NCBI GenBank assembly: GCA_048060815.1
Contig: JBGMQW010000001.1
Coordinates: 1-44,037, forward strand
DNA: 44,037 bases
Source: Thiohalomonadales bacterium
Lineage (GTDB): Bacteria > Pseudomonadota > Gammaproteobacteria > UBA6429 > Thiohalophilaceae
Reading direction: 5' to 3'
Part shown: positions 1 through 40,492 of the stretch, piece by piece
Position numbering within the stretch: position 1 is the first letter of the stretch
Layout: each line of letters begins with the position of its first letter
Position numbers and translations under genes: made by a program
Notes under the pieces: model-generated
What the model was told of the DNA's origin: nothing
What the model saw: only the letters and a program-made list of their open reading frames with translations
The model's database searches: none

Positions 1-30
1 GTTAACGGGACAGCAGTGATTTAATATTAA

Positions 31-33190: not shown

Positions 33191-34219
33191 TTAAATAGAT
33201 ACCGTCGGCAAATATCGAAGTCCTGCAATCCCTAAGCTTAATTGTAACAATTCATCCCATAAATTGCCTATTTCATTACCTTTAATTATACGATCAGTCT
33301 TATTTGATTTGCGAAGTAATGCCTGCAGTGAGGCTATTGAATGGCGATTTAAAGCATTTCGTACCATAATTTTTCGTTTATCCCACACTCGTTGTTGTCG
33401 AAATACTAATTCCATTGCATCGCCATTTTCTAAACAACTTTTCATTTTAAGCAAGCTACGAATTTCTTTTGAAAGAGACCAGTTTATTAAAAGTGGAGTA
33501 ATACCTTCTGATTTCAAACCATATAAAATACGGGGAATATGTTTAAGTTCGCCTTTTAAAGCTTCATCAGCTAATTTAAATATATCATAGCGGGCACTGT
33601 CAGCTACAGATTGCTCGACAATATCAAGAGTTAATTCATTCGATGGACAAATGAGTGATAATTTCTCGATTTCCTGGTCGGCAGCTAATAGATTACCCTC
33701 TATTCTATCAACCAGTATTTGTAAGGCATTCTCACTTGTTTTTAAGTTTCGTAAATTTAACCTTGATATGACCCAGGAACGAAGCTCAGTTCCTTCAATA
33801 GGCCATATTGTGACTGAAACCCCTACATTTAATATCGATTTAAACCATTTTGTGGTGGTAGTCGCTTTTTCCAGTTTATTAGTAACAATCAATAACAAGG
33901 TGTCACTGGAAATATTCTCACAGTATTCCACAAGCATTTGTCCACCTTCTTTACCGGGTTTACCATTTGGCATACGCAATTCAAGTATTTTCTTTTCTGC
34001 GAATAATGATAAACTATTTTTCGACATTGAAAAATCTGACCAACTAAATCCTTTTTCTATAAATAACAATTCTCTATTGCTATAACCTTGTTCCACTGCC
34101 TTTTCTCTAATTAATTTGATAGCTTGTTGTACTTGAAATGGCTCATCCCCACTGACTATATAAACAGGTTGTAAGGATGTAGTTAGCTGTTGTTCAAGAT
34201 TATTAAAATAAATTTTCAT
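33191..34219 (-). CDS. holA: DNA polymerase III delta subunit HolA
   Basis: 342 aa. N-terminus L..QL...L.PVYIVSGDEPF. Downstream of lptE as in other gammaproteobacteria. Its ATG lies 5 nt from the end of a palindromic element. Confidence 0.88.
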   Translation of the reverse strand: MKIYFNNLEQQLTTSLQPVYIVSGDEPFQVQQAIKLIREKAVEQGYSNRELLFIEKGFSWSDFSMSKNSLSLFAEKKILELRMPNGKPGKEGGQMLVEYCENISSDTLLLIVTNKLEKATTTTKWFKSILNVGVSVTIWPIEGTELRSWVISRLNLRNLKTSENALQILVDRIEGNLLAADQEIEKLSLICPSNELTLDIVEQSVADSARYDIFKLADEALKGELKHIPRILYGLKSEGITPLLINWSLSKEIRSLLKMKSCLENGDAMELVFRQQRVWDKRKIMVRNALNRHSIASLQALLRKSNKTDRIIKGNEIGNLWDELLQLSLGIAGLRYLPTVSI

Positions 34220-34224
34220 GAATA

Positions 34225-34470
34225 CTAGGGTCTGTTGATCTTTCAGATTTTAGAACTGAATAAAGAATTATAATACCAATGATTATCAATAAATAGTAAA
34301 AGTTAGGACACGGAATTGGGATACCCCTATCAAGACCGTGTGCCGCAGGACGCGGCACCCGAGCATGCCATGGATGGCAATGTTTTGCGTGTCTTGATAG
34401 GGGTATCCCGGTTTCGTGGCCGGATTTAAACTACAAATCAGATAAAATTTGAAAGATCAACAGACCCTAG
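34225..34470. mobile_element. MITE-like palindromic element, type A (246 bp maximal extent)
   Basis: Terminal inverted repeats CTAGGGTCTGTTGATCTTTCAGATTTT (34225..34251) and AAAATTTGAAAGATCAACAGACCCTAG (34444..34470) match at 26 of 27 positions. Read as TA-flanked, the element is GGGTCTG...CAGACCC (34228..34467). Non-coding, with a GC-rich internal hairpin. Only one copy in this window. Confidence 0.65.
34318..34409. repeat. Type A internal hairpin: perfect 19-bp arms around a GC-rich core
   Basis: GGGATACCCCTATCAAGAC (34318..34336) is the exact reverse complement of GTCTTGATAGGGGTATCCC (34391..34409). The core at 34330..34397 is homologous to the type B core in inverse orientation. Confidence 0.85.
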
Positions 34471-34471
34471 T

Positions 34472-34731
34472 TAACCTGAACTCGGTATAAGCAAATATAA
34501 TTTAAATAACAAAATTAGGTAGTTACGTATGAGTAATACTAAATCCATCGGCTACGGAAGGGCTGTAGCCCATTCAAGACTCGCAAAACATGCCATCCAT
34601 GGCCGCTCGACTGCCGCGTCCCTGCGGCAGACGGTCTTGAATGGGCTACAGCCCTTCCATATCCTTGCATTTGTACTCGCAATTTATTAATGGATGCTGT
34701 TACATGTTTTTCTTATCCTGAGTTCAGGTTA
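34472..34731. mobile_element. MITE-like palindromic element, type B, copy 1 (260 bp)
   Basis: TIRs TAACCTGAACTCGG... and ...CCTGAGTTCAGGTTA. Non-coding and bounded by TA at both ends. A second 260-bp copy at 39660..39919 differs at 16 positions with no indels. Confidence 0.85.
34556..34658. repeat. Type B internal hairpin: perfect 25-bp arms around a 53-nt GC-rich centre
   Basis: GGAAGGGCTGTAGCCCATTCAAGAC (34556..34580) is the exact reverse complement of GTCTTGAATGGGCTACAGCCCTTCC (34634..34658). An inner 7-bp stem pairs CTGCCGC (34611..34617) with GCGGCAG (34624..34630). Confidence 0.9.
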
Positions 34732-35262
34732 GTTAGATTCTTTAAAAGCAAAACTCAGTCTGGTTAACATTTGATTTACGATAAATTCACTCATTTCCAA
34801 TTTTAACCGAATTTCTTGATCACCTGATGCAAGTCTATTTAATGGATCAATATTGTATTCACGAGTCTGACGTAGTTCCTGATTTTTTAATAAAACTTTT
34901 CCTTTATTGTCATATACTTGAAATCCAATAACCAGGTCTAGTTTATAGGCTGAGGCTTTATTACCTGAATCTACAGTTAACACACGTCTAACAAAGTTAT
35001 TTTTGGTGATCGAAAGTATCGCAGTTGAATCTTCTTGTATATCGATACGTTCAATACCGAGTTGTTTCATTCTTCTAAATAAAACAGTTCCAATTTCATT
35101 TGAACCTACATCACCAGCGACATAAATATTTTTCAATACATCGGGAACTTCTATCGCGCCACGAAGATGAAAACCGCATGACACTAATAAAACACAACTA
35201 TTCAATAGTAAGAATATAATTACTATTTTAAAATTTTTATTAACATTATTAATATTTTTCAT
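34729..35262 (-). CDS. lptE: LPS-assembly lipoprotein LptE (RlpB)
   Basis: 177 aa with lipobox LLVSCGFHLRG, typical of LptE, following leuS. The stop codon TAA (34729..34731) is made from the last base of element B plus its flanking TA. Confidence 0.88.
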   Translation of the reverse strand: MKNINNVNKNFKIVIIFLLLNSCVLLVSCGFHLRGAIEVPDVLKNIYVAGDVGSNEIGTVLFRRMKQLGIERIDIQEDSTAILSITKNNFVRRVLTVDSGNKASAYKLDLVIGFQVYDNKGKVLLKNQELRQTREYNIDPLNRLASGDQEIRLKLEMSEFIVNQMLTRLSFAFKESN

Positions 35263-39258: not shown

Positions 39259-39594
39259 ATGCAAGCAGAAGTAAATGGTCAAGTCGTTGAGCTCAGTGAG
39301 GCTGGGTGGTTATTAAATTTAGATGAATGGAGTGAAGAGCTCGCATTAGAAATTTCAAAAACTGAAAAAATTCAGGAAATGACAGACGAACATTGGGATA
39401 TAGTTAAATTAGCTCGAGAATATTTTACAACTAATGGAAGTGTTGCTGAGCCACGTGTATTTTCTAAACTACTGAAAGAAAAGTTTGGTAAAGATCGCAG
39501 TAGCCAAAAATATATTTATACTCTGTTTCCAACTGGGTTAATTAAATGCGCTAATAAAGTCGCAGGACTACCCCGTCCTAAAGGCTGTAGTTAA
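39259..39594 (+). CDS. TusE/DsrC-family sulfur-relay protein
   Basis: 111 aa. HW.IV...R.Y......P and the C-terminal arm LFP.G......K.AGLPRPKGCS with the penultimate Cys. Strong SD AGGAG. Confidence 0.85.
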   Translation: MQAEVNGQVVELSEAGWLLNLDEWSEELALEISKTEKIQEMTDEHWDIVKLAREYFTTNGSVAEPRVFSKLLKEKFGKDRSSQKYIYTLFPTGLIKCANKVAGLPRPKGCS

Positions 39595-39624
39595 AATTAA
39601 ATATTTTTCAAAGTAAAACACAAA

Positions 39625-39656
39625 GTCGAATATTTATTCGGCTCTTTTTATTCTTT
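39625..39656 (+). terminator. Rho-independent terminator candidate after the tusE-like gene
   Basis: 7-bp stem GTCGAAT / ATTCGGC (one G-U pair) with loop ATTT at 39625..39642, followed by TCTTTTTATTCTTT. Confidence 0.55.
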
Positions 39657-39659
39657 AAA

Positions 39660-39919
39660 TAACCTGAACTTGGGATAAGCAAATATAATTTAAATAACAA
39701 AATTCAGTAGTTACGTATGAGTCATACTAAATCCATCGGCTACGGAAGGGCTGTAGCCCATTCAAGACTCGCAAAACATGCCATCCATGGCCGCTCGACT
39801 GCCGCTTCCCTGCGGCAGACGGTCTTGAATGGGCTACAGCCTTTCCATATCCTTACATTGGTTCTCGCAATTTATTAGTGGATGTTATTACATGTTTTTC
39901 TTATACCGATTTCAGGTTA
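39660..39919. mobile_element. MITE-like palindromic element, type B, copy 2 (260 bp)
   Basis: Identical to copy 1 (34472..34731) at 244 of 260 positions by hand alignment, in the same orientation and TA-bounded. Lies in the intergenic region between the tusE-like terminator and the DUF1451-like gene. Confidence 0.85.
39744..39846. repeat. Type B internal hairpin, copy 2
   Basis: Same 25-bp arms as copy 1, except one position that becomes a G:T (G-U in RNA) pair. The inner 7-bp stem is intact, with one change in its loop. Confidence 0.9.
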
Positions 39920-39988
39920 GTTACTAAAAACCTATACCACATTGTCTATACTTACAGAAAGGATAACAATTTATAGCAGCTGTACATT

Positions 39989-40492
39989 ATGAAAAATTCT
40001 AATAAATCAACTTTTGTTGAAACTTACAATCGTATACTGGAAAATTTATATAATATAAAAAATTCTGTTGAAGATACGTCGCGTGAAGATTTGTCGATAA
40101 AAATGGAGTATGCAAAAAAGAAATTACAAGAATTTGAAGATATCACAAAAGAAGAAATTGATATCGTAACAAAGTATTTACACAGAGATATTACAGCAGC
40201 AACAAATCATTTGAACAAAACCAAAAATAATATTAAAGAGTGGATAGACAAAGACATAAAGTTAACAGAAGATAAATTACTTCATTTGTTTGTTAATGTT
40301 GTTGACCAAAGTCGAGTTGAGTTGCTCGAACTAGAAACTTTATTACATGAATGGCATAGCGGTGAAGTAACCGGCATTGGAGTTTTGGAATGTAAAAATT
40401 GTGGTGAAAAGATTACTTTTACCGAAACACAAATTATTAAAAATTGTTCAAAGTGTAATGGTGAAATATTTCACAAATACTTTGATTTTTAG
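39989..40492 (+). CDS. Zinc-ribbon-containing protein (DUF1451-like)
   Basis: 167 aa: a helical N-terminal part (Y..IL..L, EEID.V.KYL.RD), then GEVTGIGVLECKNCGE...CSKCNG..F, a C-x2-C ... C-x2-C ribbon. The family name is from memory. Confidence 0.65.
   Translation: MKNSNKSTFVETYNRILENLYNIKNSVEDTSREDLSIKMEYAKKKLQEFEDITKEEIDIVTKYLHRDITAATNHLNKTKNNIKEWIDKDIKLTEDKLLHLFVNVVDQSRVELLELETLLHEWHSGEVTGIGVLECKNCGEKITFTETQIIKNCSKCNGEIFHKYFDF

Follow-up and report, generated by a model that had tools for sequence, protein, structure and literature searches.

A divergent TwoAYGGAY structured-RNA motif as the likely cargo of miniature inverted-repeat transposable elements in a Thiohalomonadales bacterium and other genomes

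TwoAYGGAY (Rfam RF01731) is a structured-RNA motif that has been known since 2010, is found in hosts that include gamma-proteobacteria and has no explained function; its basal stem, P1, was described as 'often very large (e.g., 24 base pairs)' (Weinberg et al. 2010, PMC2864571). In Pseudomonas the motif has a high and variable copy number and flanking repeats, with divergent doublets at 68.4%; a role as a Csr/Rsm sponge has been proposed for it and a spread like that of mobile elements suspected, the means of mobility being left unresolved (bioRxiv 10.64898/2026.09.22.753630). The present analysis concerns a stretch of 44,037 nucleotides from a Thiohalomonadales bacterium (assembly GCA_048060815.1, contig JBGMQW010000001.1, positions 1 to 44,037 of the forward strand), called the window below, which contains three non-coding elements, A, B1 and B2. 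They are best explained as MITEs (miniature inverted-repeat transposable elements) whose central cargo is highly likely to be a divergent TwoAYGGAY motif. Copy counts for the source genome cover these 44 kb only.

Correia/NEMIS elements of Neisseria, ERIC, RUP, BOX and REP/BIME are small non-coding repeats of intergenic regions and operons, which form stable hairpins once transcribed and differ among relatives by insertion polymorphism. Compared by description, the hairpin of these repeats is made of their own terminal repeats. The MITEs of the window, in contrast, carry a separate and widespread RNA motif, which is common to backbones with unrelated ends.

An earlier reading of this DNA from its sequence alone (the sequence-only reading) had described a GC-rich core of about 68 bp, shared in opposite orientation by type A and type B elements, nested in unrelated shells and not assigned to a named element family. 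The core match was confirmed, since the reverse complement of 34330..34397 and 34574..34640 are identical in 61 of 69 columns; the same-strand alignment of the two cores is poor (42/77). A third core copy lies at 39762..39828, within a direct repeat of 264 bp (34472-34735 vs 39660-39923, 94% identical). The richness in GC is likewise real, with 0.54 in the 100-nt segments holding the cores against 33.8% in the window and 53-55% over the full matches to a covariance model. Two core features had been delimited:

34330..34397, + strand: type A core, with the inner stem TCAAGAC/GTCTTGA and two hairpins with GGA in the loop
34574..34640, - strand: type B core

No match was obtained when the whole window was searched at the Rfam gathering threshold, which is 43 bits for RF01731. 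A permissive E-value scan of the 651-bp region 34150-34800 matched RF01731 over its full length in both elements, at 34299-34428 on the + strand in A (34.2 bits, E = 1.4e-3) and at 34543-34671 on the - strand in B1 (36.6 bits, E = 4e-4). Taken alone, these scores would be no more than suggestive. A scan of one genome per species with the core pattern CGAGC-N1-2-GCCATGGATGGCA-N0-1-TG then gave 107 matches, of which about 85 are genuine copies that share this architecture. Two of the homologues fetched in this way clear the RF01731 threshold, L026 with 43.8 bits and L028 with 48.8 bits. A covariance model, R1, built from an alignment of 55 copies (A1), scores the window copies at 125-129 bits in the sense direction and at 32-33 bits antisense, and it links them to the Rfam-passing homologues L026 (152 bits) and L028 (100 bits). 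Scanning of the window with R1 revealed no copy beyond the following three:

34298..34434, + strand: TwoAYGGAY-like hairpin of A, R1 125.6 bits sense vs 33.4 antisense, minimum free energy -80.9 kcal/mol, z = -10.8
34537..34672, - strand: TwoAYGGAY-like hairpin of B1, R1 129.4 bits sense vs 32.3 antisense, minimum free energy -82.2 kcal/mol
39725..39860, - strand: TwoAYGGAY-like hairpin of B2, R1 127.2 bits, minimum free energy -74.5 kcal/mol, core 39762-39828

The folding energy of the hairpins is thus about -75 to -82 kcal/mol (z about -10). Like RF01731, each has two adjacent GGA-loop hairpins closed by a long P1, and the model match in A and B1 is full-length and on the same strand. In element A the long basal stem encloses hairpin 1 with the loop AGGAC (34347-34351) and hairpin 2 with the loop AUGGAU (34370-34375); in B1 the loops are AGGGAC (34618-34623) and AUGGAU (34595-34600), and B2 has AGGGAA as loop 1 and one A.C mismatch in the basal stem. 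Hairpin 2 therefore has the loop AUGGAU in all three window copies, where GCC-AUGGAU-GGC equals the Rfam consensus, and hairpin 1 has AGGGAC, AGGGAA or AGGAC, in which the Y is replaced by G or absent. Related copies have ACGGAU, AUGGAC, AAGGAC or AGGGAU at the loop 1 position. Unlike the Rfam consensus, the second hairpin of the window copies has a much shorter lower stem. The identification of the module as TwoAYGGAY carried inside MITEs is highly likely.

With this identification the boundaries of the module have to be drawn differently. The 'hairpin arms' of the sequence-only reading are the long covarying basal stem (P1) of TwoAYGGAY, and the real unit is not the 68-bp core only; it is the whole hairpin of about 135 nt plus short flanks. 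The local alignment of A and B spans the whole hairpin and then about 10-15 nt further on both sides, and the cargo common to A, B and a third carrier, type C, reads 5' AAWGTKA-GGAYAYGG, hairpin, CCRTRKCC-GRWKGATT 3'. The view that the shells are unrelated holds for the outer terminal inverted repeats, which truly differ, but not for the arms, which match each other in every column of the alignment as the two sides of a covarying stem. Similarly, the architecture had been left without a named element family, a match to an Rfam family or to IS family ends being the result named as speaking against it; the module is RF01731, and shell B has IS982-family ends.

Selection on the folded structure was assessed in A1 and in a second, more diverse alignment, A2, of 37 copies, with 45 base pairs scored and with 500 shuffles and slid pairing partners as controls. 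Standard pairs occupy 96.7% of the cells in A1 (shuffled 88.5%, slid 32-42%) and 97.1% in A2 (shuffled 79.6%, slid 35-43%), which was aligned to the model and so leans toward structure. Compensatory changes were found in 28/45 pairs in A1 and 31/45 in A2, and the covariation score was 0.262 in A1 (shuffled 0.105) and 0.490 in A2 (shuffled 0.149). None of the shuffles reached any observed measure (0/500 for A1, 0/500 for A2). The helices around both hairpins, which comprise 30 model pairs (14 + 16), had compensatory changes in 24-27 of the 30. Selection on a folded structure, as proposed from the sequence, is borne out by covariation far above the shuffle and slide controls. The internal 7-bp stems, CTGCCGC/GCGGCAG in B (34611..34617 with 34624..34630) and GTGCCGC/GCGGCAC in A (34340..34346 with 34352..34358), are present as described, and their swapped closing pair proved to be a real inherited compensatory change, the 55 copies of A1 having C-G there 48 times and G-C 6 times. 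The comparison of B1 with B2 needed some correction. The 2 differences in the 103-bp hairpin and the 14 in the flanks were found again (Fisher p = 0.03), but the flanks amount to 161 bp and not 157, and the hairpin change at 34654 gives a G:T pair on the + strand only, being an A.C mismatch on the strand of the RNA motif.

The same alignments point to one of the two strands. Transition mismatches on the sense strand are one-sided, with 165 G.U against 14 A.C cells; three G.U pairs, which would read C.A on the other strand, are near-invariant across all lineages, and the sense RNA folds better than the antisense by 10-15 kcal/mol. Loop 2 is A-UGGA-U in 32 of 37 copies and loop 1 is ANGGAN, AGGAC or a close variant, GGA being present in 36/37 copies in each of the two loops and in both loops of all three window copies. 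The GGA loops and inner helices are kept while the basal stems have been wholly rewritten, with a GC content of 34% in the window, 47% in the metagenome-assembled genome (MAG) HyVt-415 and 62-70% in Halieaceae. Because arm-to-arm DNA repair explains neither the conserved loops nor the strand asymmetry, one specific strand appears to be selected. Apart from a few degenerate copies, purifying selection maintains the structure of the hairpin on one strand. Most simply, and probably, the selected strand acts as RNA.

The claim that one module resides in different shells was not only upheld; homologous cargo is found in shells of three kinds, which differ in their terminal repeats and target duplications. 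In the window these are represented as follows:

34229..34466, + strand: MITE type A body, 238 bp, with ends GGTCTGTTGATCTTTCAGATTTTA... and ...TAAAATTTGAAAGATCAACAGACC, without an open reading frame (ORF), RNA motif sense on the + strand
34225..34228, no strand: left CTAG flank of MITE A, read from the sequence
34467..34470, no strand: right CTAG flank of MITE A, overlapping the left target-site duplication copy of B1
34474..34729, - strand: MITE type B copy 1 (B1), 256 bp, with ends ACCTGAACTCGGTATAAGCAAA... and ...TTTTCTTATCCTGAGTTCAGGT, RNA motif sense on the - strand
34468..34473: TAGTTA, left 6-bp target-site duplication copy of B1
34730..34735: TAGTTA, right 6-bp target-site duplication copy of B1
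39662..39917, - strand: MITE type B copy 2 (B2), 256 bp, direct repeat D1, 94%, with flanks repeating TA only
1..19, no strand: right end of a type C MITE, GTTAACGGGACAGCAGTGA, which matches the type C terminal repeat and is cut by the window edge

Each element is built of outer terminal inverted repeats, short arms that are asymmetric, and the hairpin. MITEs A and B contain no ORFs of 80 aa or more. The inverted repeat of A (I2) has 38-nt arms that are 87% complementary, and that of B (I8) has 34-nt arms that are 79% complementary. The CTAG around MITE A may represent a target-site duplication of 2-4 bp (TA or CTAG) or, alternatively, may extend the repeat as a palindrome. The type A end was sought across about 1.5 Mb of fetched DNA and was found nowhere else in it except for a degenerate copy in locus L061.

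The origin of type B could be traced further. Scanning of metagenomes with the type B end TAACCTGAACTYRGKATAAGMAAA gave 83 loci. Among 32 elements with both type B ends, exact 6-bp duplications of the form TAnnTA were present in 16, and duplications of at least 5 bp in 21. Seven full-length elements of 0.99-1.13 kb share the 24-nt end of type B, and in the two tested of these seven, L158 and L165, the ORFs are IS982-family transposases (NF033520 275 and 245 bits, with a cutoff of 130 bits; PF13612). Transposase remnants adjoin the type B end in about 17 loci. Since its ends are shared with elements encoding IS982-family transposases, type B is considered an IS982-derived MITE. An IS630/Tc1-like origin with TA duplication was dropped for type B in view of the 6-bp duplications and the IS982-family transposases in elements with the same ends. 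Type B resembles IS982-family elements in its identical or near-identical ends (ACCTGAACTCGGGATAAGAAAA) and in the short direct target repeats; it differs from them in having no transposase and in sharing nothing between the ends, and types A and C have other ends and other duplication lengths. The full-length IS982-family partners of B come from the metagenomes, none being within the 44 kb of the window. The RNA motif itself is present in only about 10 of the 83 type B-end loci, and the hairpin is lost from the window's version of type B along a deletion series of 200, 173 and 125 bp. Derivatives of types C and B with intact ends and an absent or truncated hairpin were seen at L092:7880-7980 and in L107, L151, L157, L118 and L163; the deletion in L163 falls between two ATGGA repeats, of which the first is at the base of the stem and the other in loop 2.

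A weak Rfam match to LPR69 (Legionella RNA 69) was also observed at 34638-34728 on the + strand (18.6 bits, E = 0.22), covering the right arm and the terminal repeat of B1. The matching part, UUUCUUAUCC...UCA.G, is the IS982-type end. The match is probably a similarity to the IS982-type terminal repeat, and LPR69 may overlap a similar transposon end.

Type C is the abundant carrier of TwoAYGGAY in MAG HyVt-415 and has the ends (T)CACTGnTGTCCCGTTAAC and 9-bp duplications. A type C end stands at the start of the window, and a third carrier type is therefore present in this genome; the contig or the window probably breaks inside the repeat at its left edge. Beside solitary type C ends in HyVt-415, a search that was not exhaustive found only truncated MITEs and no full-length partner.

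The core-pattern scan placed copies well beyond the three window sites. About 65 of the pattern copies are in the hydrothermal-vent MAG HyVt-415 and about 14 in a Thioalkalispiraceae MAG, with further copies in other Thioalkalispiraceae MAGs, Halieaceae, Dendrosporobacter and one Lysobacteraceae genome. Five Halieaceae loci (L010, L013, L028, L050, L068) each hold two diverged TwoAYGGAY copies in divergent arrangement about 30-110 nt apart; the pair in L028, the one Halieaceae locus checked in this respect, lies between convergent genes. In Dendrosporobacter sp., the ends of two rRNA operons have TwoAYGGAY-like copies (L060:2567-2703, L072:494-630), located about 210-330 nt downstream of the 5S rRNA and on its strand.

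These forms can be set against those described for Pseudomonas. The divergent doublets are a common trait, being found in 5/5 Halieaceae loci. Unlike the Pseudomonas copies, which have three extra hairpins, a pseudoknot, upstream arrays of 5-6-mers and REP arrays, the window copies lie within defined MITEs, and their pair, which is convergent, goes back to two insertions. The compact motif with an elongated basal stem, which the preprint ties to Bacillota, is the form shown by the window copies. In the seed alignment of Weinberg et al. (2010), gamma-proteobacterial TwoAYGGAY sequences from Psychromonas ingrahamii (NC_008709) sit in repeated flanks (for example, GUAACACGCCGUCAGGGCGGAAGACCAACAA recurs); these seed sequences begin with GCGGCUACGGAA, which resembles the stem base of type B on the opposite side of the core.

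Some copies of the Thioalkalispiraceae MAG CAYOHQ01 are rearranged. Three of them (L052:4361-4545, L038:6627-6803, L009:3724-3914) have a 48-nt insertion in hairpin 1 (CGACUGCAGGGAUGCAGGAGGUAGAGCAACGCAGGAGCAGUUGCCGCA), which contributes three more GGA motifs. Part of this insert (GAGCAACGCAGGAGCAGUUGCCGAGGA) is also found in an unrelated type B-ended MITE, L134, and MITEs seem to shuffle small modules among themselves. In several copies from L008, L009, L017, L038 and L065 a common sequence, GACCTGAGCGCAGCGAGGAAGTACTTAATGAACG..., stands in place of the 3' half of the basal stem, and no closing stem is formed.

The insertion sites of the window can be compared with those of related lineages. 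Four syntenic loci were reached via a search with HolA, whose closest relatives have 72-83% identity and include MAGs labelled Thioalkalispiraceae. From the lptE stop to the holA start these relatives have 4-15 bp and the window has 509 bp; the spacer between tusE and DUF1451 is 128-215 bp in the relatives and 394 bp in the window. No R1 copies were found in 21 kb of each of the four relatives. Because the spacers of the relatives are short and without copies, the elements are identified as recent insertions restricted to this lineage. On the - strand the junction reads ...AATC TAACTA [ACCTGAAC...B...GTTCAGGT] TAACTA GGGTCTG...A...CAGACC CTAG TATTC ATG, and removal of both insertions gives the ancestral site lptE...AAC TAG TATTC ATG...holA, with a 5-nt spacer like that of the relatives. 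In this region (34217-34735) the holA start lies 5 nt after the CTAG flanking MITE A, and lptE now ends in a stop codon (34729-34731) made up of the terminal base of B1 and the target duplication. Two genes of an essential type, lptE and holA, are thus kept apart by 509 bp that hold two hairpins, each of about -80 kcal/mol, and holA expression must therefore tolerate or depend on the elements. B2 lies between the tusE/dsrC-like gene (39259-39594, + strand) and DUF1451 (39989-40492, + strand), just 3' of the tusE terminator, a terminator-like site being present at 39624-39643. The neighbors of the window copies are holA, lptE, leuS, an HxlR regulator, GST, the tusE/dsrC-like gene, DUF1451 and lnt. 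In one Thioalkalispiraceae MAG the otherwise empty tusE-DUF1451 spacer (L104:4876-5092) holds TTAACCTGAACTTGAG, which is an isolated 15-nt stretch of the type B terminal repeat and adjoins sequence like the right flank in the window. Judged by its sequence, this locus suggests an old B insertion that was mostly deleted later in that lineage.

The opposite orientation of A and B had been taken for a sign of a possibly flip-prone architecture. A flip of the core inside its shell does not account for it, as both elements share the same 5'/3' flank arrangement relative to the core; A and B are antiparallel as two whole MITEs inserted side by side in opposite directions. Flipping does occur, however, in HyVt-415, where the shell has asymmetric arms, one of 24 nt and one of about 60 nt, and where the hairpin is inverted relative to these arms in 10 of 76 classifiable copies (83 model matches in the fetched pieces: 66 standard, 10 inverted and 7 unclassifiable). 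Three of the flipped copies are nearest to standard copies and three cluster together. Since the flipped copies are polyphyletic, at least 3-4 independent flips have taken place. Recombination or template switching between the 30-bp arms would be enough to cause them, and no recombinase is apparent. An assembly artefact as the source was rejected by inference, since within long contigs each flipped copy has unique flanks and a target duplication of its own; in addition, the contig names suggest k = 95, which exceeds the length of the 30-bp arms. Two type B loci, L131 and L173, looked opposite and were dropped as flips, being the same element read from either end.

As in invertons, a segment between inverted repeats thus occurs in both orientations in HyVt-415. 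A programmed switch, in which the basal-stem arms would serve as recombinase inverted repeats that flip the core at a locus as in phase variation, could draw on the presence of both hairpin orientations in one shell family and on the polyphyly of the flips. Unlike in invertons, there is no associated recombinase, none being encoded near any window copy, the stem of the RNA motif itself makes up the inverted repeats, and the flips observed are fixed ones at different loci, not two states of one locus. Moreover, A and B in the window share their cargo-to-arm arrangement, and homologous recombination or template switching between the inverted arms suffices for rare flips. Such a switch is most improbable.

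A function can be proposed for the cargo. MITEs would be moved in trans by DDE transposases, those of the IS982 family in the case of type B, and the selected product would be an RNA that arises when transcription from outside the element runs through a copy. It would show a pair of GGA hairpin loops of the CANGGANG type, separated by about 25-30 nt, to which a Csr/Rsm-family or similar dimeric RNA-binding protein would bind, so that the copies might act as dispersed binding sites or sponges. The CANGGANG consensus and the paired-loop layout are those of a Csr/Rsm dimer site. [quoted passage not shown] TwoAYGGAY loops matched the CsrA-binding motif of RMfam (Gardner & Eldai), and the same Csr/Rsm proposal was made for Pseudomonas, along with a mobile-like expansion (bioRxiv 10.64898/2026.09.22.753630). 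The 48-nt insertion variants with further GGA motifs would, by their sequence, fit a multivalent binder. Binding by Csr/Rsm proteins specifically is nevertheless put forward as a tentative proposal, somewhat short of even chances.

Several observations weigh against the interpretation of the elements as MITEs with a selected RNA cargo. The window copies remain under the 43-bit gathering score of RF01731 with their 34.2 and 36.6 bits, and their loop 1 (AGGGAC, AGGAC) departs from AYGGAY. A single MAG dominates both A1 and A2, the latter of which was also fitted to the model; repair or gene conversion of long DNA palindromes can keep arms matched and so mimic covariation. No promoter-like sites were found in or beside the elements, including for holA. 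Of the window copies, B1 alone is sense within the lptE-holA transcript, whereas A and B2 run antisense to the genes on both sides, and at least two of the three window copies may never make sense RNA. The orientation bias in HyVt-415 is weak, the upstream gene being co-directional in 24 cases and opposite in 10 as judged with crude ORF calls. Deletion derivatives without the hairpin persist, and no autonomous partner for type A was found in the 1.5 Mb searched. A tblastn search for csrA in the window and the fetched loci found none, which says little, as these are genome fragments only.

Two other explanations deserve consideration in the light of these points. The hairpin might act at the DNA level, its long palindrome being extruded as a cruciform or single-strand hairpin that aids transposition, replication or recombination of the MITE, with its loops as protein-binding DNA, for example a binding site of the transposase or of a host factor, or an inversion-promoting site. 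The copies do stand in either orientation to genes, with two of the three window copies antisense to their neighbors and without promoter-like sites in or beside them, the hairpin inverts within its shell in the 10 of 76 HyVt-415 copies, and the same cargo recurs in three transposon backbones as if the transposon itself profits. The excess of G.U over A.C cells (165 against 14) and the invariant G.U pairs, however, fit an RNA, or else one specific single strand. The motif is also found outside MITE shells, in the diverged intergenic pairs of Halieaceae and near 5S rRNA in Dendrosporobacter, and B and C derivatives that have lost the hairpin retain intact ends. IS982-type DDE transposases are not known to require an internal hairpin. 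Action at the DNA level is therefore regarded as improbable. The elements might, alternatively, be functionless selfish repeats of recent amplification, with arms kept by intra-palindrome conversion or mismatch repair and a core shared through chance recombination of MITEs. Palindrome arms are known to homogenise, copies within one genome are very alike, and many of them are truncated or deleted. Against this stand the GGA loops and inner helices that are kept across lineages with rewritten basal stems, as conversion between arms cannot maintain loops, the low divergence of B1 and B2 in the hairpin (2 differences in 103 bp vs 14 in 161 bp of flanks, p = 0.03), and the reach of the motif family into Firmicutes. 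This explanation is very unlikely, and the selected RNA cargo is preferred.

Compared with the literature searched, the MITE vehicles with three end types and target duplications, the IS982-family partner, the empty sites and the inversion of the cargo appear to be new. Defined MITEs, one type of which has an identifiable transposase family, provide a concrete vehicle for the spread of TwoAYGGAY, and the residence of one RNA module in unrelated transposon backbones, in which it is invertible, is unusual for bacterial MITEs. A more speculative extension, which we consider unlikely, is that TwoAYGGAY is a portable protein-binding RNA cassette of the Csr/Rsm type that was captured by or exchanged among at least three MITE backbones of different mechanism, one IS982-like with 6-bp duplications, one flanked by CTAG and one with 9-bp duplications, and that it can flip inside its backbone via the inverted repeat of the basal stem. 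If this were true, transposition and flipping would set which neighboring transcripts gain high-affinity regulator sites, and the MITEs would rewire post-transcriptional regulons and scale a genome-wide sponge.

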